From Candidatus Brocadia sp. (GTDB lineage Bacteria > Planctomycetota > Brocadiia > Brocadiales > Brocadiaceae), in contig CP091279.1 of the NCBI GenBank assembly GCA_021650915.1, positions 1,620,001 to 1,652,000 of the forward strand: a DNA stretch of 32,000 nt, written 5' to 3'. Shown one piece after another: positions 1,264 to 28,383 of the stretch (positions are counted from its first letter, which is position 1; each line of letters begins with the position of its first letter). The notes under the pieces were generated by a model. That model was not told the origin of the DNA. It made no database searches and saw nothing but the letters and a program-made list of their open reading frames with translations. A program made the translations under genes and the position numbers.

Positions 1264-1315
1264 TAAAAAAGCCTTACTGCAAAAATGTTCATCCAAACAT
1301 CTTCGGCAGTAAGGC
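1264..1315 (-). terminator. Intrinsic terminator / expression platform of riboswitch A
   Basis: The minus strand reads AGCCUUACUGCCGAAGAUGUU-UGGAUG-AACAUUUUUGCAGUAAGGCU followed by UUUUUU. This gives a stem of about 21 bp including G-U pairs. It is paralogous to the hairpin at 27872-27924. Confidence 0.75.
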
Positions 1316-1332
1316 TATCTTTTTGTCGCTAC

Positions 1333-1428
1333 AGCAAGTTCGTCTTTCGCTACCTACGTCCGTGTACGTCTGGAAAAGACCCTTTACTTTGCGTCCCCTG
1401 ATCACTCAGGGTTTGCCCTTATCGTGAT
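1333..1428 (-). promoter_or_regulatory. c-di-GMP-I (GEMM-I) riboswitch aptamer, copy A
   Basis: The minus strand reads CACGAUAAGGGCAAACC-CUGA-GUGA-UCAG-GGGACGCAAAGU...ACGUAGGUAGCGAAAG. Compare my recollection of the Vibrio cholerae Vc2 aptamer: CACGCACAGGGCAAACCAUUC-GAAA-GAGUGGGACGCAAAGCC...CCGGUAGGUAGCGGGG. Shared elements are the GGGCAAACC junction, a GNRA-capped P1b, the GGGACGCAAAG core and an identical GUAGGUAGCG 10-mer. Confidence 0.8.
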
Positions 1429-5039: not shown

Positions 5040-5780
5040 ATGAGAAAGAGATTTGAGCAGCAATTGAAGCTTGGCATCATACCCATTTCAGGGGTAAAAC
5101 TGCCAATAAAGAGTCGAGATGAGCTACCACCGATACTGAGGGCGTTGCAACATATCTATGTTACACCGGAGTTGAACGAGGAGGTATTCCGGATATTAGA
5201 GGCGAAGGTAACGAAGGGGAAGAAAAAGACGGGAAGATATGGGATGGATTTATGGCATATTTTGGTGTTGTCGGTGGTAAGATTAGGGTTAGATGCCGAT
5301 TATGACAGGTTGGAGGATTTTGCCAACCATCACAAACTTATCAGGCAGATAATGGGGGTTGAGACGGCATTTGGAGAGGCGAAGGTTTTTTCGATGCAGA
5401 GCATCAAGGACAATATAAGATTGTTGGATGAGGAGACCCTCAGGCAGATAAATGAAGTGGTGATATCATCGGGGCATCAGTTGGTTAAAAAAAAGGACGA
5501 AGGACTGTGTATTAAGGTGGATACGTATGTGTTAGAGACGAATGTACACTTTCCGACCGATATGAATTTATTGTGGGATGCGGGACGCAAGAGTCTGGAC
5601 ATGATAGAGGATGCAATAGAGGAAGGCATCCTGGCGGGGAAAGGATGGCGCAAGAGCAAATATTGGAGGAGAGAGTTAAAAAAGCTGATGAGGATAAGCG
5701 CAAAGGCGTCAAGCAGCGGGGGGGAAAAACAAGGAAGAGCATGTGAGGAGTTACTTGGAATTATCGAGGGGTTTGAGTGA
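5040..5780 (+). CDS. Transposase orfA (N-terminal half, carries the first catalytic Asp region)
   Basis: 246 aa. ..KVDTYVLETNVHFPTDMNLLWDA.. is typical of the N-terminal catalytic block of IS4/IS5/IS1182-type DDE transposases. Confidence 0.85.
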   Translation: MRKRFEQQLKLGIIPISGVKLPIKSRDELPPILRALQHIYVTPELNEEVFRILEAKVTKGKKKTGRYGMDLWHILVLSVVRLGLDADYDRLEDFANHHKLIRQIMGVETAFGEAKVFSMQSIKDNIRLLDEETLRQINEVVISSGHQLVKKKDEGLCIKVDTYVLETNVHFPTDMNLLWDAGRKSLDMIEDAIEEGILAGKGWRKSKYWRRELKKLMRISAKASSSGGEKQGRACEELLGIIEGFE

Positions 5781-6504
5781 AAAGATAGGAGCGAGTCTGT
5801 TAGCCATCTACGAAAAGGTGCTAACGACGAACCAGGTAGACAAGCATGCAGGGAAAATAGGGACACTGGAGTATTTTCACGGGATGTTGAATAAACAGAT
5901 AGACCTGGTGGAGAGAAGGGTGATCCGGGATGAGGTAATACCGGCGGCAGAAAAGGTTCATTCGTTGTTTGAGCCGCATACGGAGTGGCTGTACAAAGGC
6001 AAGTCAAACAAAAGGGTAGAGTTGGGACATAATATTCTGGTAGCAAGCGATCAGTGGGGTTTCATCGTGGACCATGTGGTAGGAGAAAAACAGGCGGATG
6101 TATCGTTGGTAATTCCATTGGCAGATAGGTTGTTGAGCCGTTACGGAGAAGGCACAATAAAGAGTATAAGTTTTGATAAAGGTTTTTACAAGAAAGAGAA
6201 TAAAGAGTTGCTGAGTTTGTATATACCAGAGGTAATCCTTCCCAAGAAGGGCAAGAAGAATAAGGCGGAACAGGAAGAGGAATCGGGTAAGACATTTAAG
6301 AAGCTAAGGCACAAGCACTCGGCGGTAGAATCGGATATCAATCGTTTGGAGCATCACGGCTTGGATAGGTGTCCGGACAAAGGGCTGCATGCCTTTAAAA
6401 GATATTGTGCAATGGGCGTGTTAGCTGCGAATTTGCACAAGCTGGGAAACGTGCTGCAGGAGAAGGCACGGAAGCAGTGCGAAAAGTTGCGAAAAGCCGC
6501 CTAA
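5743..6504 (+). CDS. Transposase orfB (C-terminal half of the DDE domain), +1 frame
   Basis: 5743-5040 = 703 = 3n+1. This frame is open from 5698, so a fusion is possible anywhere in 5698-5780. Confidence 0.85.
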   Translation: MRSYLELSRGLSEKIGASLLAIYEKVLTTNQVDKHAGKIGTLEYFHGMLNKQIDLVERRVIRDEVIPAAEKVHSLFEPHTEWLYKGKSNKRVELGHNILVASDQWGFIVDHVVGEKQADVSLVIPLADRLLSRYGEGTIKSISFDKGFYKKENKELLSLYIPEVILPKKGKKNKAEQEEESGKTFKKLRHKHSAVESDINRLEHHGLDRCPDKGLHAFKRYCAMGVLAANLHKLGNVLQEKARKQCEKLRKAA

Positions 6505-8396: not shown

Positions 8397-11318
8397 TCAG
8401 GGGTTCACTGACCTGGTGAGGCGGATGCCAACGCGGTTGAAGCGGTTGTCAGGCGCGTTGCTGCTCCGGTTAGCCGACCGGCAGTTCTGCGCAACGCTGG
8501 TCCAACTGCCACCGCGCATCACGCGGGAGGAGCCCTTCTCAGGACCTTTCGGTTCCTCTTTAGGACTCGATTTATAGTAATCCGCATCATACCAATCAGC
8601 GCACCACTCATAAACATTACCATGCATGTTAGCCAGTCCAAGGGAATTGAGGTTTTCCGCGCCGGCGTGGGGATTGACTTCATCTACGGCATGGGCATGC
8701 GGTTTATCGGCCTCGCCGAACCAGGCATGGCTAGTCAAATCTTCCGGGTTGTCGCCAAAATAATATTGGGGGCGCCTGGCACTTTCCCCACCCCTGGCTG
8801 CATACTCCCACTCAGCCTCTGTAGGAAGGCGTGCATTCAGCCAGAGGGCACAATAATAGGCTTCAAACCAAGTGTTGCTCACAGCGGGGTGACTGTCTCC
8901 TCCATAATTTGGATACTTTTTTCCTAAGGGGAAATTTGCCAGCATGCGGTTTGTCACCGGATGTTTCGCCATAAGAAAGCTATCAACTTTTACCTGATGG
9001 GCCGGTCGTTCATTATCTCCATGGTTATCATCCCCCATGAGGAAGGTACCGCCCTGCACCCCTATCCATTCTAAGCAATTAGCCGGATCATTTAAAAATG
9101 CCCTCTGGCGCTCTGCGGCATGTTCCAGATCAAGGAGTTCATAGAGTATGCCTCCGGGTTCAAGGGGTTTAAGCTCCATGTTCGTCAGCAGGATCTGGGC
9201 GCGATAGATCACCTCGCAGTCGCGTTCACCGCATTCCAACAACATGATGCGCAGCGTTTCCTGCACAAGGTTTTGACGTTCGGCTTCAGACACCAGGGGG
9301 AGGGATTGCTCCAAAGAATCGATCAGCAGCAGCTTGCCCTGATTGCCCTGCTCTTGTTCAATCAGTGGCTGAATGATTTCATCAACCGACGCCTTGACTT
9401 CCGTGGTTACCCGCAGCGCAAGTGGCCGGTTTATCGTCCACAATCCGTTAATCAGCGCTTTAACGTCATCATCCTGGACCAGCAGTCCGGCATAAAGCCT
9501 GACTACTTCCTCCCAATCCGGATTGGCTGCATGCCTGATGACAAATTCCTGCTTCTTTTCCAGCAACGCCAGGGCCGTGAAATACTCCCACAGGGATCGA
9601 TGGACAAAGGTGTACCCTTCCTTCAGGCGTTGAATCAGCCCGGTTTCCCGCTGCAGCAGGTCAAGAACTTCATCTGTTTTTCCCGGTAAGGCAGCGGTTG
9701 GATGGCTCCGGCCAATAACCTTCACATGATCGGGGTCGAAATCAGCCTCCTGCCACAAAAAAAATTTTAAGGAGATATCCTTTAATAAACCAAGTGCCTC
9801 CTCATACGTAATGTGAACCTTTCCCGTCTGTCTTTGATCCGTATCATAGGGACGATCCAGCAAAGAGCGGGTGCAGTTTGCGTAAAGCTGACTACGGCGT
9901 TCAATCAGTTCTGCCTTGTCATCGATTCCAAAAGTAAAGCAGATCATACTCAGCAGGAAGGGGTTGGCTGCCAGGGCGCGGATGCGCGGTTTGTCCCCGA
10001 AGGTTTTCCACAAGACATCGATTTTATCCGTGTCGTCTTTAAACCATTTGCCCAGGTATTCTTTCATCACAAGATCGTCCAACGGCAGTAAATCCAGGGG
10101 ACGGTATCCCGGATAGTCTTCTGATTTGAGCCCAATAGGACGGGAAGTGACGATTATCCTGCAGCGAGGATATTTCTTCGCAAACGCATCCATGATACCG
10201 GCAATTTTTTTATTTGTCTCCGGGTCTTCAATTTCATCAAGGCCATCCAGGAACAGCGCCATCGGCTGTTCCAGAAAACGCCTTTTATCACAGAGAACAT
10301 CGAGCATTTCAGGACTGTCACTATCCTCATTGATCTGCTGTTTTACAAACTCATCCAGGGTATTTTTGGCGCAACAAAAATCACGCAATCGCAAATAAAC
10401 CGGTATCAGTTCCTTTTTACCTTCTGCTCCAAGGGTGGCAAATCGGTGGACAAGATAGCGCATCAATGTCGTCTTGCCCCCTCCCGGCAGTCCACGCACC
10501 AGAAACCGGGGTTCCTTAAATCCATCAATAAACAGGTCTTCTATCCCCAGTGGCTCGACATCACTACCTGTGGCAACTCTCTGCCAGTCACTTAAATACA
10601 GCGGCACAAAGCCCTCGTCAATAGAGGCCATGTGATCGAACGTCTCTCCGCTCTTGCCTGCATGCTGGCACTGACTGCCGAAGAAATACATGGATGAAAA
10701 TTTCAACTGAATCCGTTTGCAGTAGTTGCGCATGAAGTCCTGAGTTTCGCTTCTCTGCAGACTCCAGCCCGCCCCTGCTCCGGTAAGTTTATACTCATGA
10801 CGGATGAAGTTTGACATATGTTGCCTTGCGAGCCGCTCGAACTGAGACACATCCTGAAACGTCCCGTACAAACCTTCTTTGGGAAATTCATTCCGGAATC
10901 GTATGACAAGCCCAAACTGCTCATGCTCTTCCGTAGTCTGCGGAAAGAACGGAGTTTCTTTGAAGTACATCATTATCTGAGGGCGGTTGTTTTGCCGCCA
11001 GCCCCTGATGGCCGTGCGGATCTCGTGCCCCGTCCCTGATTGTGCATCGCGGGTGGGCGTACCAAAGCGCTTCCAAAATATACCAAGCAGAATATCGCAG
11101 TCTTCAATACGTAAGATAGGATCAATGAGTCCCTGAGGGCCATCGGCGTGAAACCCAGGATAGGCATCGGTCTCCCAACGGCTTAATTCCAGGAGTAAAT
11201 TGCGATCGGCGGCGACACCGCGGTTTAACTCGTCAATGACAGACTCCATCACCTTCCGTTCTTCTTTTACATCTCCCGGCGACGCAAGCACAATTCGAAG
11301 ACACTGCTTTGCCTTCAT
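8397..11318 (-). CDS. NLR-like STAND NTPase, 973 aa: DUF4062-like N-terminal domain, NACHT, helical linker, and a C-terminal FGE/SUMF1-type (sulfatase-modifying-factor-like) domain
   Basis: aa 8-125: ..IVLASPGDVKEER..DAYPG..CDILLGIFWKRFGT..SGTGHE..MMYFK (DUF4062-like pattern). Walker A is GLPGGGKTTL (aa 276-285) and Walker B is ALFLDGLDE (aa 354-362). aa 749-970: ..GGTFLMGDD...RPAHQV.V..F.MAKHPVTN....RGGSW...CRSANR....RVGIRL (FGE-sulfatase family). Confidence 0.9.
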   Translation of the reverse strand: MKAKQCLRIVLASPGDVKEERKVMESVIDELNRGVAADRNLLLELSRWETDAYPGFHADGPQGLIDPILRIEDCDILLGIFWKRFGTPTRDAQSGTGHEIRTAIRGWRQNNRPQIMMYFKETPFFPQTTEEHEQFGLVIRFRNEFPKEGLYGTFQDVSQFERLARQHMSNFIRHEYKLTGAGAGWSLQRSETQDFMRNYCKRIQLKFSSMYFFGSQCQHAGKSGETFDHMASIDEGFVPLYLSDWQRVATGSDVEPLGIEDLFIDGFKEPRFLVRGLPGGGKTTLMRYLVHRFATLGAEGKKELIPVYLRLRDFCCAKNTLDEFVKQQINEDSDSPEMLDVLCDKRRFLEQPMALFLDGLDEIEDPETNKKIAGIMDAFAKKYPRCRIIVTSRPIGLKSEDYPGYRPLDLLPLDDLVMKEYLGKWFKDDTDKIDVLWKTFGDKPRIRALAANPFLLSMICFTFGIDDKAELIERRSQLYANCTRSLLDRPYDTDQRQTGKVHITYEEALGLLKDISLKFFLWQEADFDPDHVKVIGRSHPTAALPGKTDEVLDLLQRETGLIQRLKEGYTFVHRSLWEYFTALALLEKKQEFVIRHAANPDWEEVVRLYAGLLVQDDDVKALINGLWTINRPLALRVTTEVKASVDEIIQPLIEQEQGNQGKLLLIDSLEQSLPLVSEAERQNLVQETLRIMLLECGERDCEVIYRAQILLTNMELKPLEPGGILYELLDLEHAAERQRAFLNDPANCLEWIGVQGGTFLMGDDNHGDNERPAHQVKVDSFLMAKHPVTNRMLANFPLGKKYPNYGGDSHPAVSNTWFEAYYCALWLNARLPTEAEWEYAARGGESARRPQYYFGDNPEDLTSHAWFGEADKPHAHAVDEVNPHAGAENLNSLGLANMHGNVYEWCADWYDADYYKSSPKEEPKGPEKGSSRVMRGGSWTSVAQNCRSANRSSNAPDNRFNRVGIRLTRSVNP

Positions 11319-12236: not shown

Positions 12237-13955
12237 GTAACTATTCAGCGTAATATCGCCCCCTATCGTTACGAGCTGGCAAAATCAGGCAATTTGCCGC
12301 GAAATACCATCCGTAATGCCTGACTTAAATTTACCCCTTGTTTTCGACAAGTCGAGAGATAACTACGGATGAGGCAGAAGATCTTCGCTCCGTCCAGAGA
12401 ACGAAAACAGCCCGATATCTTCTGCTGAACCTTCGTCATCCTGATATCGTTTTCGGCCAGGTTATTCGTGAAGGGGACGTTTTTATTGTCCATAAATCTG
12501 AGCACATCACCCTCATACTCCCGTAATCGTTCCAGGAGATTCCGTGCTTTTGTCCTTTTTACCCGCCCTCTTTTCCCCTTACGGTTCGTTTCATCAGGGG
12601 GCGGGCTTTCAGCTTCTGCGTTTTGTAATATCCCCCGGTACCTTTGCCGGTATTTCTCAGACTCGCCGTTTTCCAACAAACCCCCCGCATCCTTTACCGC
12701 ACGGTTTATCTCTTCGAGCAGGGCTTTCATCTCTTTCGCCCACGGTTGCTTCTTATCCTCTTCCCACACCCCCTCCAATTCCCTCAGGTGGTGTGCATTA
12801 CAGAGCGCATGTGTACAGCGGGTGTAGGTGTAATACGCCTTCAAATGGTCGTGACAAAGAATCCCCCGAAACTGGGGCAGTATCCCGATACTATCCATCG
12901 CTTCCGTCCCACGTCTTTCGTGAGGGAAAAAGTGTGTCCACAAACTATTGGATGCACTATGCAGCCAATACCTGTCTCCGTTCTTGTTGATGCTCGTTTC
13001 ATCTGCCTGCAATACCTCTGATTTGACAAGTTCTTCCTTGGTTTTCCCCTCGAAGGCTTCCAGAGATTCATAGGCATCCTTGTTAAAGTTGTAAAGAGAG
13101 CCTTCGCTCAGCGGTATCCCCATCTGCTCCTCAAAATACTCCTGGATCCTCTTATAGGGTATCAATTGATACTGTGACATATATACTGCGTGCGCTTTCA
13201 AATCCGGCCCATACTGCACTGCCTTTGTCACCCCTTCCGGAAATGACGCTACAAACCTACTTCCCTCCGCATCCTCAACTATCTCTGCCCGATACTCCGT
13301 TACCACCCTTGAAATCTTCATATCAAACACCTGACGCGACTCATAACCGATCAACCTGTATTTGCCGCTCGGATACTTCCTCCGGTCTACTTTTATTACT
13401 TCCACCTTATCAGGATTGGCTACCTTTTTCAGCGTTACTCCATCATGACCCTCTTGCCCACCTGCCTTCCTCTCTCCTTTCGCCCTGCTCTTTCTCGTGC
13501 GATTCGGATCGCTTGCGGGCGGCTTACTACTGTTGCGACTGTTCCGGTTCAGACGTCCTACCAGCAGCGTTATCACTAACACCAACAACTCTATCATTGA
13601 CCTTATGGCAGGTGACAGACCTTTTTCCTCTGAAAGCAGCTTTTCTACTTTCCGCAGCGTTGCATCTATATCTATATTCTCTATCGTCAATGGATGGCAC
13701 CGGTATTAATAGCCTGAAATCATCTCCTGCGGCTATTATACCACAGGCTTTTTCACCCATTTTTTTCACCCTCTACCGCCCTACAAAACTCTGTAATTCT
13801 CTGGCCGAACATACCCCACACCTCTCTTTGCAAAAACCTCCGATGGGCTACAGTGGCATCCTCCACAGCCATTTATTCTACCAACCAATTCTACGGCCCC
13901 CTTTTCTCATGTTGACTGTCAACTAAATTCTAAAATATTTTCGCTGAATAGTTAC
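12237..13955 (-). mobile_element. IS66-family insertion sequence, single-ORF type, intact (1719 bp)
   Basis: Perfect 14-bp terminal inverted repeats GTAACTATTCAGCG (12237-12250) and CGCTGAATAGTTAC (13942-13955). They are flanked by an 8-bp direct repeat ATAAAAAC (12229-12236 and 13956-13963). 8 bp is the characteristic IS66 target duplication. Confidence 0.9.
12269..13690 (-). CDS. IS66-family transposase (TnpC-type), 473 aa
   Basis: ..LQADETSINKNG..WLHSASN...LCHDHLKAYY....ALCNAHHLREL.. resembles the IS66 DDE core with its conserved C.AH.RR/L motif. There is an N-terminal coiled-coil/basic region and no accompanying tnpA/tnpB ORFs. Confidence 0.9.
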   Translation of the reverse strand: MTIENIDIDATLRKVEKLLSEEKGLSPAIRSMIELLVLVITLLVGRLNRNSRNSSKPPASDPNRTRKSRAKGERKAGGQEGHDGVTLKKVANPDKVEVIKVDRRKYPSGKYRLIGYESRQVFDMKISRVVTEYRAEIVEDAEGSRFVASFPEGVTKAVQYGPDLKAHAVYMSQYQLIPYKRIQEYFEEQMGIPLSEGSLYNFNKDAYESLEAFEGKTKEELVKSEVLQADETSINKNGDRYWLHSASNSLWTHFFPHERRGTEAMDSIGILPQFRGILCHDHLKAYYTYTRCTHALCNAHHLRELEGVWEEDKKQPWAKEMKALLEEINRAVKDAGGLLENGESEKYRQRYRGILQNAEAESPPPDETNRKGKRGRVKRTKARNLLERLREYEGDVLRFMDNKNVPFTNNLAENDIRMTKVQQKISGCFRSLDGAKIFCLIRSYLSTCRKQGVNLSQALRMVFRGKLPDFASS

Positions 13956-17279: not shown

Positions 17280-18113
17280 ATGAAAAAGATTGAACCGCAC
17301 CTTTCCGAAAAAACTTTCAGGGGAAAACTTTTCAGGGTTATCTACGAATCTGGCACCATAGGGGGTAAGTTGTTTAATGTTACCCTCATCTCTTGTATCG
17401 TAATCAGCGTTCTCATTGTATCACTCGATAGTATCGAGAGTGTCAGCATTCGTTATGGGAAAGCATTATTATATGCTGAATGGGTCATAACGATCCTTTT
17501 CAGCATTGAGTTTGCGCTCAGAATCACGTGTGTAAAAAAACCCCTGAAATATCTTTTCAGCTTTATGGGTTTGGTCGATCTCCTTTCTATCCTTCCCTTG
17601 TATCTCAGTTTCTTTTTTACCGGGACAAAGTACTTCGTCGTCATCCGAACGTTCCGCATATTGCGGATCTTCAGAATCTTAAAAATGTGGAATTTTGTCG
17701 AGGCCTCTCACCAGTTAACAAAGGCCCTTTATATCAGTTCCATTAAAATCGGGGTATTTATTCTCTTTCTCCTCGTGCTTGTCGTTATCATTGGGTCCCT
17801 GATGCATCTCATTGAAGGCGGAAAACATGGCTTTGACAGTATTCCCCATAGTATCTACTGGGCTATTGTAACCCTCACTACCGTAGGTTATGGCGATATT
17901 GCGCCTAAAACACCCGCAGGCAGATTATTTGCTTCCGTCATTATGCTTTTAGGTTATGGAATCATCGCAGTCCCAACAGGGATTGTGACTGCCGAATTAG
18001 TAAAATTTACCAAGATACCACACGCCAAATCTGTCCATAGTTGCCCTTCCTGCGGCAAAGAAGGACATGACACCGACGCCCACTTCTGTAAATTCTGCGG
18101 GGAGAAATTGTAG
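17280..18113 (+). CDS. Voltage-sensor-containing K+ channel (Ion_trans family) with a C-terminal zinc-ribbon tail, 277 aa
   Basis: S4-like VVIRTFRILRIFRILKMW, selectivity filter TTVGYGD, and C-terminal CPSCGKEGHDTDAHFCKFCG (CxxC...CxxC). Confidence 0.9.
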   Translation: MKKIEPHLSEKTFRGKLFRVIYESGTIGGKLFNVTLISCIVISVLIVSLDSIESVSIRYGKALLYAEWVITILFSIEFALRITCVKKPLKYLFSFMGLVDLLSILPLYLSFFFTGTKYFVVIRTFRILRIFRILKMWNFVEASHQLTKALYISSIKIGVFILFLLVLVVIIGSLMHLIEGGKHGFDSIPHSIYWAIVTLTTVGYGDIAPKTPAGRLFASVIMLLGYGIIAVPTGIVTAELVKFTKIPHAKSVHSCPSCGKEGHDTDAHFCKFCGEKL

Positions 18114-21889: not shown

Positions 21890-23443
21890 ATGAAAAGAGA
21901 AGATGTCATAAAAATCGTTTTAAAATCAGAGTCCCTGCCTACCCTGCCAGCCGTTGCATGCAAACTCATCTCCATCTCGTCTCAGGAAGAAATAGGAATG
22001 AAGGAAATTGCAAACCTGGTATCGAAAGATGCCTCTCTGTCTGCAAAGGTATTGAAAATAGCCAATTCAGCCCTCTACAATTTCCCGGTAAAAATAAGCA
22101 ATGTGCATCAGGCTGCTTCAAGAATCGGATTGAACGCAATCAGGAGCTTAGTGCTTTCCTTTTCATTTTTATCAATCAAGGCAAAGAACGCGGGAAATAC
22201 TTTCAACTATGAGATGTTTTGGGAAAAATCCCTTGCGAACGCAGTCGCAGCAAAACTTGTCATGGCTGAGGTTAGCAAATCTGACGGAGAAGAGATATTC
22301 ATCTCCGGACTCTTACAAAACATAGGAGAACTGATTATGGCTGGATGCTTCCCCAAGCAGTATGCACAAGTATTGCAGGAAACATCGGGTAGCGAAAACG
22401 ATCCTGCTGGAGCGGAAGAACAAATTATTGGAGCAGATCATGCATATATTGGCTATGAGATTGCTAAAAAGTGGGGATTCCCTCAGGAGTTACTCATCCC
22501 TATTCTCTATCACCATTCACCGCAAAACTATAAGGACGACGACAGCAAGCTCAGGCTTGCGGTCAACGTTGTCCATTTATCAGGAATTGTTGCGAATATC
22601 CTTTATTCAACGAACCCTCAGAAATATCACCAAATGTTTCTGGATGTGTCAAAGGCAACGTTCGGTTTCAATGATACCGTTGTTAGCAGGATAATGGATA
22701 ATGTCGTCACAGAAATCAACGAGACCGCCGGATTGTTTGGCCTTCATGTCAAGAACCACAAGCCAATTGAGGAGATACTGCAAGAAGCCAACGCGTCTCT
22801 CAGCAGCATAAACTTAACGTACGATCAAATGAACCGGGAACTGAACGACACGAAAATCCAATTGCAGAGGCTTACCAAAGAACTTGAAGAAAAAAACAAA
22901 CACCTTGAAAATCTTGTACAATTGGACAGCTTAACAGAAGTATATAATCAGGGTTGCTTTCAAAAAATGCTCGAAAATCAAATCAGCCTGGCAGTTCGTA
23001 AAAATTCATCGCTTAGTTTAATTATGATCGATGTCGATTATTTCAAAAGTATTAATGACAATTACGGCCATTTGGTGGGCGACGCTATTTTAAAAGAATT
23101 CTGTGCCTTAATGAGAAAATCTTTTCTGGATCACGACATGATCTTTCGGTATGGGGGTGAAGAATTCGCCATTATCCTTGCTGGCATGGCTGAGCGTGAT
23201 GCCAGAATTGTTGCTGAACGGTTACGGGAATCGATTGCCAACCATACCTTTATAGTTCATAACAACAAACATCATGTTACAGCCAGTTTTGGGGTTGCGG
23301 GCATAATGCCGGCACTCGATGGTCTTACAAAAAAAGACCTTATTGCCTTTGCGGACGCAGCCCTCCTTGAATCCAAAAAAACAGGGCGCAACAGAGTTTC
23401 GGTGTATAGTCAGAAAAAGAATTTACTCTCCCAGCCCGCTTAA
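21890..23443 (+). CDS. HDOD-domain / coiled-coil / GGDEF diguanylate cyclase, 517 aa
   Basis: N-terminal ..LPTLPAVACKLISI..(HDOD pattern)..YHHSP.. A coiled coil follows (..LNDTKIQLQRLTKELEEKNKHLENL..). The C-terminal domain reads ..DVDYFKSINDNYGHLVGD...RYGGEEFAIIL with an intact GGEEF active site. No RxxD I-site lies five residues upstream (LDHD instead). Confidence 0.9.
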   Translation: MKREDVIKIVLKSESLPTLPAVACKLISISSQEEIGMKEIANLVSKDASLSAKVLKIANSALYNFPVKISNVHQAASRIGLNAIRSLVLSFSFLSIKAKNAGNTFNYEMFWEKSLANAVAAKLVMAEVSKSDGEEIFISGLLQNIGELIMAGCFPKQYAQVLQETSGSENDPAGAEEQIIGADHAYIGYEIAKKWGFPQELLIPILYHHSPQNYKDDDSKLRLAVNVVHLSGIVANILYSTNPQKYHQMFLDVSKATFGFNDTVVSRIMDNVVTEINETAGLFGLHVKNHKPIEEILQEANASLSSINLTYDQMNRELNDTKIQLQRLTKELEEKNKHLENLVQLDSLTEVYNQGCFQKMLENQISLAVRKNSSLSLIMIDVDYFKSINDNYGHLVGDAILKEFCALMRKSFLDHDMIFRYGGEEFAIILAGMAERDARIVAERLRESIANHTFIVHNNKHHVTASFGVAGIMPALDGLTKKDLIAFADAALLESKKTGRNRVSVYSQKKNLLSQPA

Positions 23444-23498: not shown

Positions 23499-24419
23499 TT
23501 ATTCCAAAACCTTTCTGACAAAACCACCCTGCGCATCGAGCCTTTTCCTTGCCTCCGGGTAATCGACACCCAGTTTCTGCATAACGATAGCAACCTTTGC
23601 ATTCCCAAAAGCAGCTTCCAGCAGTTTCTTCGCAGCTTCACGGCTGATACCGGTAACCGTCATAATGATGCGCTCTGCACGGTCCGTAAGCTTTGCGTTG
23701 GTAGCCCTGAGATCGACCATAAGGTTCTCATAGACCTTGCCAATCTTAATCATAGAAGCCGTGGTCAGCATGTTTAGGATAAGTTTTGTAGCGGTGCCAG
23801 CCTTCATCCGGGTAGATCCGGTTATGACTTCAGGGCCTGTAATTGGCCTGATGACGACGTCGACGTCAAAATGGGGGGTGGTTTCTTTGTTGCAGCAGAG
23901 GAAGATAGTTTTTGCGTTGCGCTTTTTTGCTTCAAAAAGCGCCCCCATCACATAGGGAGTTGTTCCGCCCGTCGTGATGCCCACAACGACGTCCTTATGG
24001 CTCACCTCTCTTAGCTGGATGTCCTTTGCGCCATTTTCCGGGAAATCTTCAGCCCCCTCTACCGATTGAAAGACGGCCTTTTCACCACCGGCAATGATTC
24101 CCATAATAAGGCCGGGGTCGGTGCCATAGGTAGGAGGGCATTCCGATGCATCCAGAATACCCAGTCTTCCGCTGGTACCAGCACCCACATACAGAAGCCG
24201 GCCACCATCCCGAAAAGCCGAAACAATTACGTCAACCGCCTTTGCAATATGTTCCCGTTCCTTGTGGACGGCGGTAAAGACATTGGCATCCTCGGCATTG
24301 ATACTATCAATAATCTCCAGGGTGGTTTTGCAATCGATATTGAAAGTACGCTGATTGCGCTGTTCGGTGAGCAATTGAGAACGATCTTCCATCTCCATGA
24401 TAGGTGCGCATATTACCAT
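23499..24419 (-). CDS. murQ: N-acetylmuramic acid 6-phosphate etherase, ~300 aa
   Basis: SIS-domain motif VGAGTSGRLGILDASECPPT plus ..LLTEQRNQRT..ID.. at the N-terminus, as in MurQ. Alternative starts are at 24398 and 24392. Confidence 0.9.
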   Translation of the reverse strand: MVICAPIMEMEDRSQLLTEQRNQRTFNIDCKTTLEIIDSINAEDANVFTAVHKEREHIAKAVDVIVSAFRDGGRLLYVGAGTSGRLGILDASECPPTYGTDPGLIMGIIAGGEKAVFQSVEGAEDFPENGAKDIQLREVSHKDVVVGITTGGTTPYVMGALFEAKKRNAKTIFLCCNKETTPHFDVDVVIRPITGPEVITGSTRMKAGTATKLILNMLTTASMIKIGKVYENLMVDLRATNAKLTDRAERIIMTVTGISREAAKKLLEAAFGNAKVAIVMQKLGVDYPEARKRLDAQGGFVRKVLE

Positions 24420-24491: not shown

Positions 24492-27400
24492 TTACTCCTT
24501 TAAAAACCGTGCTATTTGCTGGAACAGAGAAATTGATCCCATACCTCCTAATGGCGTTAAAATGGCCATTAGGATTGGATTCTGGAAAGAAATGGGCGGA
24601 GAAAATGCCCCGTTTTTTAGTTTCTGAATTTCATTCATAACATGCTCGATAGACCTTGACCGTTGTTCTATAAGTTTTGATTTCTTAACATCAAATGCAT
24701 CGACTTCTTCGGGCAATTGGGTATTGAGCAATTTCAGTTGTTCTTCACGCAACTGAGTTATTGTTTGCTGGCGGGCTTTTTTTGTTACATGAAAGAGGAT
24801 GATCGTACAAGTCAATGCAATCAGTGTCGTTAATCCAATAACAATTGCTAAAGGTACGGTCCATGTCCAATTGTCAAAATATTTGTGACGGGACACAAGG
24901 AGTAAAAACAAAATCAAAAATGGATACTTTATCATTTCTCCAACCACCTTCGTTCTTTTCCAAATGATATTCATTTTGAACCAGTATCCCCATGTATCAT
25001 GCATCATCTGATTATCATATTTATGCAGGCATGTATCGTAGAGATATTTGCACTTTTTATTATTTTTTTTACACATATCATTTTCTAAGGAGCAGTGGAT
25101 ATTCATAACCTTTGACCAATTTACTTTTTCATTTAGGTCGATTATCCGGTTGATAAACTTTATGCAGAGCCCGGTGGTATAAATCACAAACATGATGAGA
25201 ACTAACATAAATAAAAGGCTTGAAATGAGGATACATTTATCCACAATAAAACTAATTCCGCCACGATAAGGAATAGATGGTTTACCGCATGTAAGAATGA
25301 ATACATAGCCCATCCCTAAATACATTGCCGCCCCACCTATGCTGAATATCCATTTCTTTTTGGATATTTCACTTGCTTGAAATCTGTTCCAGACCTCAAG
25401 AATGTTAGAGATTGTATCGCCTTTTCTCTTTGACATATCTGTGCCATTTTCGGGTTTTTGTAAAGACTGGGTTATTTCCTTATTGTTACACACGATACCC
25501 TGTATAGAAAAAAGCAGAAAATAGAGCGCAAGAAATCCACCGAACAGGCGAAGCAGTTCAGTTGGCCAGATACTAATACCATCAAAAAACGTTATCGGTT
25601 CACCCTCCCCACTCAACGACGACTTGAATGCATAAACGGTTAAGGCTATAAAAGACGTTATGCAAGAAATTAAAAAACCCATCCAATACTTCTTCCAAGG
25701 GTCATCTATTCCAGCCTTTTTAACTTTTTGTAGATTGTAATAAACCAAACCGCTGAATACGCTCGTCGGAAGAAATAACATGAAAAAAAGATAAAACAAC
25801 CAATCTTTAAGTGGCTTGCCTTTCCAACAGTCATTGCGATTAGGATGCAACAGCTTTGTTCCGGAGGAGTTTGATTTACCTTTTGCAACAGGAGTCAAAT
25901 CGTATGCCCCTCGATGTCCGATTTCAAAAATACGGGGTTGGTTCCTGTTTCCATTGAAATCAAATTCGTCTTCGGCTATGATTCCTAAAGCTTGGAGTGC
26001 AGCAAAGAACAAAGAGGTTTGGTAGGTAGAACGGAATGGCGGTGTTGCCCATTGATATTGAGGATGCAATTGAAGTCCATAACTGGATGCCACAACAAGG
26101 TTCCTCGTCCAGGGAAGTTCGGTATGATGATAAAGTCGGGCATCCAGGTCAGTGGTAAAAAAGATAGCATTGGGGAATTGATCATGCAGTGCCCTTAAGA
26201 TAAGTAATTTGTCATATATGTCGTTACCAAGAACACCAATTGCACATACATTGTATTTGGAATATTCTTGTTGTATCCTCTCGGTCAGGCGGCGTATGTA
26301 ATCAAATTGATCCTGACCCAAGGGTTGTTCAAATGCCGGAGTGAAATAGCTAGCATCAGAATTTTTCTTCATTTTTTGTGCACTATCAGTTGACGTCCTG
26401 GGAGGTGAATTGGAATCATCGGCTGCATTAGATATCATACCGTCAATGCCACGCATGTAACTGAAGATGTGTATCTTTTCAAGCAATGCAATATTGTTCC
26501 CTGTGTTGGACGTTTGGTTGTGTTTTCCACCATATTTCTCCAAGAAAGATATAATGAAAGATACCGGTAATGTCCGTCCGTAAAATGTATCCCAATCGCT
26601 GATGAGAACGATATCTCCAGAGGTTTTACTTCCGATATTTCTGTCACGCCGCCCCAGTTCTTCTACTAATTCACGGGTCAACTGTTGATCAGGATGAATT
26701 GATCGTTGTAAAGAAACCTTCGTTTCTCTCAGAATAGCATCAAAAAGGTCTGTATCCTTTAGAAAAGGCTGCACCTCATAATACATTTTGATTAGCACAG
26801 GAATGGATATCGGTTTTTTTGCCATCATCAAAAGCGGATCCGCCGTCGCCCAGGGTGAGTATATCTTAAATTCCACATGATCAGGTACTGGTCTTTGTCG
26901 TTCGTTTTTTAAATTATTTTTAGCCATTTCATAGGCGGATTTTGCATCTTCGAATTCCTTTTGTGACTGGGTTATTTGTTTTTTCTTAGAGACATTCTTT
27001 TCAATATCATCTAAAACTTCTTTTGATTTAAAATATTTGCACATCTTTCTGAGAAATTCCTTTACAGAACTGTCGTCTGGAATTGCCTTTGAAATAATTT
27101 CTTCAAGGACGGTAGAATTGGTGGGGCCAAGAACTTCAATAGTTTGTCTGCGCTGACTTTCCTGTCGTGGAGATTTAAATTCGTCAATGCAATCCTGAAC
27201 ATGCCGAAATAAACTCCTTAATTCTTCGATCCACTTATCTGAAAAATACTCTTCGCCCAACCAGAGCACAAGTATTGCATCATATTCCTTTTTCATCTGC
27301 GGTGACCACAGATATGGATTTGTTGGAAATAGATCCGGCAGAAACCATTCATAAGGTATGGTACGAATCAGACCACAGATCTCTCTTTCAAAATACCCGA

Positions 27401-27812
27401 TGTGCTCAGCATCCTTAGGCCTGTAGCCAGCAACATGAAGTGCGGAAAGAACGGCATATCGGCTTCGCAATCGGACTTCAAGATTTTCTGTGTAAAGTTC
27501 TGCAGTTGTCATAACTGGTAAGATTAATATATTTTTAATCTCAAGATCTAACTCTGGTGTAAAATCTTTGGGGCCTTTACCCTGGTTTTTTGTATACCTC
27601 AGGTAATTTTCAACCGCCTGAAAGGGGTCTTGCCACATACGCGCCAACACGTTCTCTTCACCCAATGTAGACGCAGCCTTTTTCTCGCCAGGCGATGGAC
27701 GAAAGGTAAGTAAAGGAGCATAGAACTTGACGATTCCGCCTGCAATGATGGCAACAATTAGCAGGAGAACAGGAACTGTATACGAAGATTTTTCTTCAGG
27801 TTGGTCAGCCAT
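24492..27812 (-). CDS. Large uncharacterised membrane protein, 1106 aa: N-terminal TM anchor, ~640-aa soluble region, 7-8 TM C-terminal module, and a coiled coil
   Basis: It is a single uninterrupted ORF. Hydrophobic spans fall at about aa 13-30, 671-691, 709-729, 752-775, 821-841, 858-884, 962-974, 985-1008 and 1079-1097. A heptad-like segment spans aa 1010-1066. I recognise no catalytic or family motif. It is preceded by a riboswitch plus terminator. Confidence 0.85.
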   Translation of the reverse strand: MADQPEEKSSYTVPVLLLIVAIIAGGIVKFYAPLLTFRPSPGEKKAASTLGEENVLARMWQDPFQAVENYLRYTKNQGKGPKDFTPELDLEIKNILILPVMTTAELYTENLEVRLRSRYAVLSALHVAGYRPKDAEHIGYFEREICGLIRTIPYEWFLPDLFPTNPYLWSPQMKKEYDAILVLWLGEEYFSDKWIEELRSLFRHVQDCIDEFKSPRQESQRRQTIEVLGPTNSTVLEEIISKAIPDDSSVKEFLRKMCKYFKSKEVLDDIEKNVSKKKQITQSQKEFEDAKSAYEMAKNNLKNERQRPVPDHVEFKIYSPWATADPLLMMAKKPISIPVLIKMYYEVQPFLKDTDLFDAILRETKVSLQRSIHPDQQLTRELVEELGRRDRNIGSKTSGDIVLISDWDTFYGRTLPVSFIISFLEKYGGKHNQTSNTGNNIALLEKIHIFSYMRGIDGMISNAADDSNSPPRTSTDSAQKMKKNSDASYFTPAFEQPLGQDQFDYIRRLTERIQQEYSKYNVCAIGVLGNDIYDKLLILRALHDQFPNAIFFTTDLDARLYHHTELPWTRNLVVASSYGLQLHPQYQWATPPFRSTYQTSLFFAALQALGIIAEDEFDFNGNRNQPRIFEIGHRGAYDLTPVAKGKSNSSGTKLLHPNRNDCWKGKPLKDWLFYLFFMLFLPTSVFSGLVYYNLQKVKKAGIDDPWKKYWMGFLISCITSFIALTVYAFKSSLSGEGEPITFFDGISIWPTELLRLFGGFLALYFLLFSIQGIVCNNKEITQSLQKPENGTDMSKRKGDTISNILEVWNRFQASEISKKKWIFSIGGAAMYLGMGYVFILTCGKPSIPYRGGISFIVDKCILISSLLFMLVLIMFVIYTTGLCIKFINRIIDLNEKVNWSKVMNIHCSLENDMCKKNNKKCKYLYDTCLHKYDNQMMHDTWGYWFKMNIIWKRTKVVGEMIKYPFLILFLLLVSRHKYFDNWTWTVPLAIVIGLTTLIALTCTIILFHVTKKARQQTITQLREEQLKLLNTQLPEEVDAFDVKKSKLIEQRSRSIEHVMNEIQKLKNGAFSPPISFQNPILMAILTPLGGMGSISLFQQIARFLKE

Positions 27813-27871: not shown

Positions 27872-27924
27872 AAAAAAACCTTACTGCAAAGATATTTTCT
27901 CAAAACATCTTCGGCAGTAAGGCT
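27872..27924 (-). terminator. Intrinsic terminator / expression platform of riboswitch B
   Basis: The minus strand reads CCUUACUGCCGAAGAU-GUUUUGAGAAAAU-AUCUUUGCAGUAAGG (16-bp stem) followed by U7. The stem sequence is shared with the terminator at 1264-1315. Confidence 0.75.
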
Positions 27925-27925
27925 G

Positions 27926-28028
27926 TCTTTATTCCTGGAAGCCGTATTTTCTAAACCACTTCCGTGTAGGCTTAAAGATCCACTACTTTGCGCCCCCTGA
28001 TCACTCAGGGTTTACCCTTATCGTAATG
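27926..28028 (-). promoter_or_regulatory. c-di-GMP-I (GEMM-I)-like riboswitch aptamer, copy B (divergent)
   Basis: The minus strand reads UACGAUAAGGGUAAACC-CUGA-GUGA-UCAG-GGGGCGCAAAGU. Over this 44-nt 5' half it differs from copy A at 3 positions (the first base plus the two core changes). It is followed by CCU..GGAAG...CUUCC.AGG in the P2 position. The 3' GGUAGGUAGCG motif of copy A is absent. Confidence 0.55.
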
Positions 28029-28177: not shown

Positions 28178-28235
28178 AAAAGTGTGTCATGGCACACTTG
28201 TGTGACGTCACATAAGTGTGCCATGACACACTTTT
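28178..28235. repeat. 58-bp near-perfect palindrome made of three tandem GTGTG...CACAC sub-palindromes
   Basis: AAAAGTGTGTCATGGCACACTT-GTGTGACGTCACAT-AAGTGTGCCATGACACACTTTT. The 22-nt outer arms are perfectly complementary, and the centre is TGACGTCA. Confidence 0.95.
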
Positions 28236-28383
28236 AAAAGTAATAGACAATATCTCCCTAAACGGACACCTTCAGTAATGCCATTTCCCTTGACTGTCCC
28301 AGTATTACTGATAAAATGAGTACACTTTTTTGGCATTTATTTTAAATCTCTCTCTATTTAGGTCTTTCCGGGATATAAAACAT

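Follow-up and report, generated by a model that had tools for sequence, protein, structure and literature searches.

What kind of protein does a cyclic di-GMP (c-di-GMP) riboswitch control when the gene behind it belongs to no recognised family? The question is raised by a locus of the anammox bacterium Candidatus Brocadia sp. (assembly GCA_021650915.1). It lies on a stretch of 32,000 nt of contig CP091279.1 (positions 1,620,001 to 1,652,000), here called the window, whose own numbering is used throughout. One intact open reading frame (ORF) at 24492-27812 on the minus strand, with an ATG start and the stop codon included, encodes a protein of 1106 amino acids (aa) that is 100% identical to P0001. 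The gene is preceded by a riboswitch-terminator leader, and its product combines a domain of modelled flytrap fold with an eight-helix membrane domain carrying a cytoplasmic helical bundle. The protein belongs to a large family that is conserved over the full length, with conservation centred on the flytrap, and that has no output domain or conserved partner. The locus is best read as a c-di-GMP ON-riboswitch together with the gene of a receptor-type inner-membrane protein.

Riboswitch Leader and Its Terminator

The leader carries a c-di-GMP-I (GEMM-I) riboswitch aptamer at 27910-28026 (-), 97 nt upstream of the ORF and on the same strand. It covers the whole of Rfam model RF01051 (positions 1-87) with 50.3 bits against a gathering threshold (GA) of 35 (E 3.6e-07). 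The expression platform is an intrinsic terminator at 27872-27922 (-), in which a stem of -22 kcal/mol (27879-27922) is followed by a U-run encoded by T7 (27872-27878). The 5' arm of this terminator (CCTTACTGCCGAAGATG) doubles as the 3' strand of aptamer helices P2 and P1; that is, the 3' strand of the aptamer (AGCCTTACTGCCGAAGATG) is the 5' arm of the hairpin ending in T7. The minimum-energy fold of the full leader is the terminator, and the aptamer region folded alone takes the GEMM-I shape. The ATG of the gene lies 60 nt beyond the terminator. Since aptamer and terminator are mutually exclusive, the ligand-bound aptamer should prevent termination, and the leader is therefore predicted to be an ON switch, with c-di-GMP binding predicted from the aptamer match.

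An earlier note on this DNA had named the gene as the cargo of a GEMM-I riboswitch, and the assignment is borne out by the leader standing 5' of the orthologue in seven of the seven Brocadia loci examined. The leader of the window is near-identical to those in six other Brocadia loci. Apart from the window, the aptamer-terminator unit stands before the orthologue in Ca. B. pituitae (L001/L007), in two Brocadiaceae loci (L002 and L003), in WS118 (L005), in B. sapporoensis (L006) and in B. carolinensis (L008). The overlapping terminator design is kept in L001, L002, L005, L006 and L008 as well as in a second riboswitch of the window. The leader scans used Rfam at the gathering threshold on 12 loci and the custom model R1 on 84 sources. 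Neither Rfam on the 12 loci nor R1 on about 70 loci gave a match outside Brocadia, and the leader was not found in Scalindua, Firestonebacteria, Nitrospira, Nitrosospira, Nitrococcus, Desulfobacterium, Phycisphaerae or the other loci scanned. Judged by these scans, the regulatory link is real and conserved, yet restricted to the genus Brocadia, and the term "c-di-GMP-regulated" cannot be extended to the whole family as had been suggested.

The leader resembles other c-di-GMP-I riboswitches with terminator platforms in having an above-threshold aptamer and a terminator that competes for the 3' strand of P1/P2. It differs from them in that the Brocadia copies are near-identical paralogues, terminator included, some of which are best described by the GGC variant. 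The usual GEMM-I cargo consists of pili, flagella, adhesins and enzymes of c-di-GMP turnover, whereas the cargo here is receptor- or channel-like. The envelope, adhesion or motility effector expected earlier is thus not what the fold matches indicate, since they point to a receptor or channel.

Several observations concern the surroundings of the leader and its relatives. The second riboswitch, of the same clan, lies at 1301-1426 (-) and is assigned to c-di-GMP-I-GGC (RF03167, 64.6 bits against a GA of 59); it has the same terminator design, with the terminator reaching about 1265. Its cargo seems to be disrupted or to lie beyond the window, because positions 1-1300 hold no minus-strand ORF and are occupied instead by a copy of an insertion sequence (IS)-like element. 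Several near-identical aptamer-terminator copies are found within a few kb in Brocadia genomes (L002 4287-4397 and 5646-5756; L006 2343-2495 and 4640-4760; L001 5805-5928 and 9782-9909). A gene for a secreted protein with an Lcl_C domain follows one of the Brocadia copies. The L001 unit that lies downstream of the target is directed into a region whose sole called gene is on the opposite strand. A literature search on c-di-GMP riboswitches in anammox bacteria returned nothing specific.

The 3' end of the 1106-aa gene is separated by about 1 kb from a gene for an HDOD-GGDEF diguanylate cyclase at 21890-23443 (+), so that a source of c-di-GMP is encoded beside the c-di-GMP-sensing locus. The gene of the MurNAc-6-phosphate etherase MurQ (405 bits; 23499-24419, -) starts 72 nt past the stop codon of the 1106-aa gene. 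No terminator was detected between the two, and in this genome only, transcription from the riboswitch promoter may continue into MurQ.

Gene Integrity, Family and Distribution

The 1106-aa protein had no match in Pfam, NCBIfam, PADLOC or, by phmmer, in PDB sequences, in agreement with the earlier description of its family as unrecognised. A profile built on 49 family sequences also gave no match among PDB sequences. When 46 members were scanned singly against Pfam at E <= 10, no recurrent family appeared. Six long members (1378-1606 aa) showed no informative fused domain in the same kind of scan, and no recognisable cytoplasmic output or signalling domain was found in the family by Pfam scans that included them. 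The family itself is large. The profile search against 1.84 billion cluster representatives (50%-identity clusters) returned 5,763 proteins at E <= 1e-3, of which 3,462 also pass E <= 1e-30, and nearly all of the best 150 matches align across the full profile. The predicted N-terminus is aligned with those of the homologues (occupancy 0.91). The family alignment has 36 invariant columns, mainly charged and aromatic residues of the soluble domain, and conservation peaks at aa 101-140, 401-420 and 521-600.

The gene is AT-rich, as spot counts in the earlier note had indicated. Its GC content is 0.394 against 0.447 for the whole window, and its GC content at third codon positions (GC3, 0.381) is the lowest among the 14 genes of the window (range 0.45-0.62). 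This value, together with the IS copies and the IS66 transposase elsewhere in the window, is what speaks for an ORF that is spurious, decaying or wrongly assembled, or for a foreign gene acquired recently. The probability of such an origin is negligible, however, given full-length homologues in 5,763 clusters and the 36 invariant columns. Orthologues at 57-62% identity occur in all Brocadia species sampled, each with the same leader, and lysS adjoins the orthologue in three Brocadia lineages. The GC3 of the orthologues in two other Brocadia genomes is 0.376 and 0.428; they are similarly AT-rich and are not outliers there. On this comparative sequence evidence the reading as a spurious ORF is excluded. 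The AT-richness is taken as a stable trait of the gene and not as a sign of recent acquisition, because AT-rich orthologues with the same leader are present across Brocadia species. Recent horizontal transfer as its source was rejected on the same grounds, and the "separate ancestry" suggested from the base composition is not supported. The absence of conserved homologues, which had been named as a possible mark of a decaying or mis-assembled ORF, was not encountered; homologues are abundant.

A scan of one genome per GTDB species revealed at least 534 family loci, and detailed counts were made on the best 80 (L005-L084). About 57 of these 80 loci belong to nitrifiers and anammox bacteria: the anammox genera Brocadia and Scalindua, the nitrite oxidisers Nitrospira, Nitrococcus, Nitrotoga and Nitrospinota, and the ammonia oxidisers Nitrosospira, Nitrosovibrio and Nitrosomonas. 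The rest of the 80 come from Verrucomicrobia, Planctomycetes, methanotrophs, Variovorax and other Burkholderiales, and Desulfobacterium. The enrichment, taken from the raw count in these sequence matches, looks real, because the identities among the genome matches are all 25-30% and the ranking is near arbitrary. An intact homologue of 1039 aa is encoded on the megaplasmid of Ralstonia pseudosolanacearum UW386 (NZ_CP039340.1; L085, 3914-7033), with 24.7% identity over 84% coverage; it is unannotated in the plasmid table.

Two features that had been pointed out in the protein are both present and turned out to be lineage-specific decorations, unconserved in the family. The Lys/Glu-rich insert (aa 249-305; 26898-27068, -) is a helical hairpin (helices 249-272 and 277-305) almost exclusive to the Brocadia lineage, with a column occupancy of 0.10-0.14. 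The Cys-rich cytoplasmic loop (aa ~896-930; 25023-25127, -) between helices S4 and S5 of the membrane domain has a predicted local distance difference test (pLDDT) score below 50 at aa 896-911. Its occupancy in the family is about 0.5, and no Cys is conserved in the consensus.

Clustering of the ORFs from 85 loci revealed no partner gene kept across phyla. An operon partner was accordingly rejected, the clustering having given within-genus synteny only: Nitrospira keeps dnaE, accA, TPR and NnrS genes near the member, three Brocadia lineages keep lysS, and a metallophosphoesterase gene recurs among some of the Brocadia and Scalindua. The NnrS gene of Nitrospira lies about 2 kb downstream of the family member. 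The metallophosphoesterase is a calcineurin-like protein of 397-412 aa adjoining the member in some Brocadiaceae and in Scalindua (L002 9603-10796, L006 8603-9796, L010 3648-4886) and has no counterpart in this window. In Nitrococcus, the gene downstream of the family member encodes an amidase_2 protein with a peptidoglycan (PG)-binding domain.

The Probable Periplasmic Flytrap Domain

The full-length AlphaFold2 model, built on the 49-sequence alignment, has a pLDDT of 79.9 and a predicted TM-score (pTM) of 0.79. Its soluble half shows an alternating beta-alpha pattern. The region of aa ~50-640 (25893-27665, -) very probably has the fold of type-I periplasmic-binding proteins (PBPs), the Venus flytrap, as judged from the model. 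In Foldseek searches against the PDB it matched the LivK-like substrate-binding protein (SBP) 4q6b (E 2.9e-4, probability 1.0, target-normalised TM-score 0.52). The entries 4mlc, 3lkb and 3td9 were found at probability 1.0 with target-normalised TM-scores of 0.51-0.55. The type-I entry 3h5l (the set ranging over 0.49-0.55) and the mGluR5 ectodomain 6n50 were also matched at probability 1.0. More than 20 type-I SBPs and ectodomains of class-C G-protein-coupled receptors (GPCRs) were matched at probabilities of 0.9-1.0, with target-normalised TM-scores up to 0.55. They include the ectodomains of mGluR, CaSR and TAS1R, and full-length class-C GPCRs are the top Foldseek matches of the whole protein. 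At the sequence level, Peripla_BP_6, ANF_receptor and related Pfam models gave no match (46 members at E <= 10 and the PDB profile search). The statement of the earlier note that no nucleotide-binding, transport or enzymatic motif is seen therefore stands for the sequence and fails at the level of fold, where a flytrap and a likeness to insect odorant and gustatory receptors appear.

Most of the invariant residues of the family fall in this domain. They include R58, W60, D62, E112, R114, R116, R118, E155, D408, G455, D457, D504 and Y505, and further G529, D531, D534, K535, T553, D557, N571, F593 and R594. Several of them stand just after beta-strands: D408 after strand 400-406, D531 and D534 after 522-527, and D555 and D557 at 550-554. 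In the type-I fold, the ligand clefts lie at positions just after beta-strands.

Compared with LivK/LivJ-type (cluster B, type-I) SBPs, the domain shares the two-lobed alpha/beta fold. It differs from them in several ways: inserts (aa 249-305, 460-499 and others) add about 250 residues, both of its ends are tethered to the membrane, its invariant set is far more charged, and it lacks a Peripla_BP_6 or ANF_receptor match.

The number of invariant acidic and basic residues at strand ends is unusually high, and this raises the question whether the protein is a membrane enzyme that faces the periplasm and works on some component of the envelope or matrix. The invariant Asp/Arg cluster, with TTDLD, would then be a catalytic or metal site, and regulation by c-di-GMP would link the enzyme to matrix production; this is the explanation nearest to the "envelope effector" of the earlier note. 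It would be in keeping with the Brocadia c-di-GMP riboswitch that precedes the secreted Lcl_C-domain protein and with the peptidoglycan-related neighbours in two lineages (MurQ in the window, the amidase with a PG-binding domain in Nitrococcus). However, the fold matches are to binding proteins and receptors and not to enzymes, no enzyme family of Pfam or NCBIfam is matched, the neighbours are unconserved and the link to the riboswitch is confined to Brocadia. An enzyme is therefore improbable. A peptidoglycan-related function as such was set aside, since the MurQ and amidase neighbours occur in two lineages only, and is kept as a weak lead.

The Membrane Domain

Kyte-Doolittle (KD) hydropathy and AlphaFold2 agree on the transmembrane (TM) layout: an N-terminal helix TM0, the soluble region of aa ~50-640 and eight TM helices. 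The overall architecture given in the earlier note is borne out, and its count of seven to eight spans after the soluble region is thereby settled as eight, nine in total. TM0 (aa 12-30; 27723-27779, -) is a signal-anchor helix with a KD value of 2.4, present as helix 13-29 in the model and hydrophobic in 98% of family members. TM A (aa 668-700; 25713-25811, -) can be read as a linker TM running from the periplasmic domain to the point on the cytoplasmic side where the bundle starts, the last seven helices being readable as S1-S7. This seven-helix bundle (aa 705-1105; 24498-25700, -) has a layout like that of the seven-transmembrane ion channel (7TMIC) superfamily in the model and by Foldseek. 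It consists of S1 (705-733), S2 (749-784), S3 (819-842), S4 (852-895), S5 (918-974), S6 (986-1030), the cytoplasmic S7a (1040-1063) and S7b (1079-1105). What had been described as a coiled coil of about 55 aa is made up of helix 1040-1063 and the part of helix 986-1030 that reaches into the cytoplasm; the hydrophobic helix noted at the end of the protein is real, though marginally hydrophobic. The conserved residues of the TM domain cluster in periplasmic loops facing the flytrap: GISIWPTE (aa 745-752), FGxPxxPxRG (841-851) and SRxxYFDxW (974-982).

The whole-protein search gave weak matches to the odorant receptors (ORs) and the gustatory receptors (GRs) of insects, and aa 655-1106 were for this reason modelled separately (pLDDT 85.8, pTM 0.86). 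In Foldseek searches of the PDB with this domain alone, the top 17 matches were all insect OR, Orco or GR channels (E 0.0098-0.28, probability up to 0.99). Among them are AaegOR10, AgamOR28, BmGr9, Gr64a, Gr43a, OR5-Orco and MhOR5, with alignments of 386-472 columns. The remaining matches had probabilities of at most 0.16, except for Orco 6c70 (0.47) and MhOR5 7lid (0.30), and no GPCR was present in the top 50.

Five qualitative criteria have been used for the 7TMIC superfamily: a count of seven helices, N-in/C-out orientation, outer loops shorter than the inner ones, long TM4-TM6, and a TM7 split into a cytoplasmic TM7a and a membrane-spanning, pore-lining TM7b (bioRxiv 10.1101/2023.08.30.555482). 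In the 1106-aa protein, S4, S5 and S6 are 44, 57 and 45 aa long against 24-36 aa for S1-S3, as expected of long TM4-TM6. The outer loops have medians of 15, 9 and 11 aa and the inner loops of 45, 52 and 57 aa, which follows the short-outer, long-inner pattern. The hydrophilic helix 1040-1063 (KD -0.26) is followed by a break and then by helix 1079-1105, which may represent a split TM7. In terms of the model, the last seven helices can be read as fitting this description, with two caveats, the extra linker TM and the broken, marginally hydrophobic S7b. That the bundle is a genuine OR/GR-type fold is somewhat better than an even chance, on the strength of the predicted structure.

The prokaryotic screen of Himmel, Moi and Benton required exactly seven TM segments, and their account mentions no periplasmic or N-terminal domain (bioRxiv 10.1101/2023.08.30.555482). 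A nine-TM architecture would have been filtered out of it, because only proteins with exactly seven TM segments were kept.

The distribution of Lys and Arg over the loops of 49 sequences was used for topology. The loops that follow TM A, S2, S4 and S6 contain on average 5.8, 8.4, 9.3 and 12.4 of these residues, against 0.4, 1.1, 1.7 and 0.4 for the loops that follow S1, S3 and S5 and for the C-terminus. This alternation predicts a periplasmic flytrap and an N-in/C-out orientation of the last seven helices, the orientation of 7TMICs.

A fusion of an SBP to a transporter, in which the flytrap captures a solute and the eight-helix domain is the permease, would make use of the type-I fold and of the conserved periplasmic loops that face the binding domain. 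SBP-permease fusions are known in ABC and TRAP systems. The TM domain is nevertheless unlike any transporter fold, the matches to ABC exporters having probabilities of at most 0.16; moreover, ATPase or transporter genes are absent from the neighbourhood in every lineage examined, and no Pfam transporter family is matched. Transport thus has a low probability.

Proposed Mechanism

The receptor-type reading can be put as a sequence of steps. c-di-GMP would keep the aptamer closed and block the terminator, so that transcription enters the 1106-aa gene. Brocadia would accordingly make the protein at high c-di-GMP, in the aggregate or biofilm state. The flytrap cleft, presumably lined by invariant Asp, Arg, Tyr and Thr, may bind a small periplasmic solute. 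All members are presumed to share this solute, since no part of the family is more conserved than the flytrap. Closure of the flytrap would pass via the GISIWPTE, FGxPxxPxRG and SRxxYFDxW loops to the seven-helix bundle. The bundle would be built like the insect odorant and gustatory receptor channels, with an N-in/C-out orientation, a split S7 and long S4-S6 helices that make up a cytoplasmic "anchor", and by analogy with these channels it may form a tetramer and open an ion path. The protein appears to act on its own, because the family lacks a cytoplasmic output domain, a fused domain and a conserved partner gene; acting alone appears to fit what a channel would allow. A periplasmic-ligand-gated ion channel is tentatively proposed on these grounds, with a likelihood that falls just below one half.

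The same architecture has been weighed as a transducer without ion flux. The flytrap would sense the solute and the bundle would relay the change to its cytoplasmic parts (S4-S6 and S7a), which contact partners encoded elsewhere, following the logic of class-C GPCRs or of SBP-dependent sensors. The best whole-protein Foldseek matches, full-length mGluR3, CaSR and TAS1R with the same domain order over at least 1000 columns, agree with it, as does the long and moderately conserved cytoplasmic helical bundle; a metallophosphoesterase gene adjoins in some lineages (L002, L003, L006, L010). Yet the TM domain alone has no GPCR among its top 50 matches, no partner gene is kept across phyla and no cytoplasmic signalling domain is recognisable. 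A transducer of this type is unlikely.

The proposal of a ligand-gated channel also has to be set against several findings that count against it. The likeness to ORs and GRs is weak: E values are 0.01-0.3, TM-scores are 0.29-0.41, below the usual 0.5, and root-mean-square deviations reach 10-15 A. Helix 1079-1105 is broken at a conserved PxGGxG and is marginally hydrophobic, with a family median KD of 1.65; if it fails to span the membrane, the topology of the bundle becomes N-out/C-in. To our knowledge, no bacterial 7TMIC has a demonstrated function. The many invariant charged residues of the flytrap could equally mark a catalytic site. For the leader, the orthologous copies in L001 and L002 are best described by the variant RF03167 (c-di-GMP-I-GGC), and a literature search returned no ligand data for this variant. 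The 46 members scanned at E <= 10 revealed no link to 7tm_6, 7tm_7, DUF3537 or Peripla_BP. The prokaryotic 7TMICs accepted so far are likewise expected to lack a 7tm_6, 7tm_7 or DUF3537 profile match (bioRxiv 10.1101/2023.08.30.555482).

A wider interpretation is possible but doubtful. The 1106-aa protein may be the founding example of a family of at least 5,700 clusters of OR/GR-type channels with their own flytrap sensor, convergent on the class-C GPCR design. Their ligand would be common to the family and is perhaps tied to nitrogen-cycle chemolithotrophy, and in Brocadia they would be deployed only at high c-di-GMP, in the aggregated state. The tie to nitrogen-cycle chemolithotrophy is proposed because about 57 of the best 80 loci are those of anammox bacteria and of nitrite and ammonia oxidisers.

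Comparison with Known Receptors and Channels

Both component kinds, receptors made of a flytrap plus a membrane module and bacterial 7TMICs, are known. The literature searched nowhere describes the family or the combination of a flytrap with a bacterial 7TMIC; their union and the family of the 1106-aa protein appear to be new in this sense.

The 7TMIC superfamily (insect OR/Orco and GR; Bac7TMICs) resembles the bundle, whose helices can be counted as seven in predicted N-in/C-out orientation. Its outer loops are short and its inner loops long, S4-S6 are elongated and reach into the cytoplasm, and S7 may be split, as in the superfamily. Members of the superfamily are the only PDB folds matched with meaningful probability by the TM domain alone. 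The 1106-aa protein differs from them in having a signal-anchor, a flytrap of about 600 aa and one more TM before the bundle, whereas known 7TMICs bind their ligand inside the helical bundle and lack a large outer domain. The most conserved part of the 1106-aa family is this outer domain and not the S7b/anchor region; in addition, S7b is broken at PxGGxG and a sequence-profile link is lacking.

Class C GPCRs (mGluR, CaSR, TAS1R) have a type-I PBP/flytrap ectodomain with a helical membrane domain after it, which is the domain order seen here, and give the top whole-protein Foldseek matches (E 1.8e-4 to 1e-3). Their bundle is, however, N-out/C-in and is preceded by a cysteine-rich linker, while the 1106-aa protein has no cysteine-rich domain at aa 640-668. 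The latter also has eight helices with long cytoplasmic extensions, a TM domain without a GPCR match and an N-terminal membrane anchor in place of a cleaved signal peptide, and it is bacterial, with no G-protein machinery. Ionotropic glutamate receptors (iGluRs) and the bacterial GluR0 share the logic of a PBP-fold ligand domain fused to an ion-channel domain that it gates directly. In iGluRs, though, the ligand-binding domains have the type-II PBP fold and the pore is of the K-channel type. No Foldseek match to an iGluR pore was obtained; the single NMDA receptor entry (rank 15) was matched via its type-I amino-terminal domain only.

If the channel reading is true, the union of a flytrap with an OR-like bundle would make a third case, beside class-C GPCRs and iGluRs, in which a PBP-fold sensor was independently paired with a membrane signalling module. 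The family is at present uncharted: thousands of clusters of membrane proteins of about 1000 aa, with no Pfam or NCBIfam model, are found in environmentally important bacteria such as Nitrospira, Nitrosospira, Nitrosomonas, Nitrococcus, Nitrotoga, Brocadia, Scalindua, methanotrophs, Variovorax and Ralstonia. The separable and strongly conserved ligand-binding domain offers an experimental handle on the function of prokaryotic 7TMICs, and the homologue on the Ralstonia pseudosolanacearum megaplasmid makes genetics feasible in this plant pathogen, a tractable host. For anammox bacteria, the gene would join the c-di-GMP ON regulon accompanying granule formation, as a candidate sensor of periplasmic chemistry.

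Other Features of the Window

The gene at 8397-11318 (-) encodes a protein of 973 aa in which a NACHT NTPase is joined to an FGE-sulfatase domain. An IS66 transposase is encoded at 12269-13690 (-) and a voltage-gated-type Ion_trans channel of 277 aa at 17280-18113 (+). A pair of repeats at 1-~1000 and 5543-~6540 (+) is 100% identical over at least 300 nt, with a spacing of 5542. Both copies encode identical 253-aa ORFs (201-962 and 5743-6504), show a strong purine skew and probably represent an IS/transposase element. A long near-perfect palindrome (AAAAGTGTGTCATGGCACACTT...AAGTGTGCCATGACACACTTTT) at 28180-28240 has the riboswitch on one side and the promoter region of lysS on the other. It could serve as a terminator in both directions or represent a repeat element.

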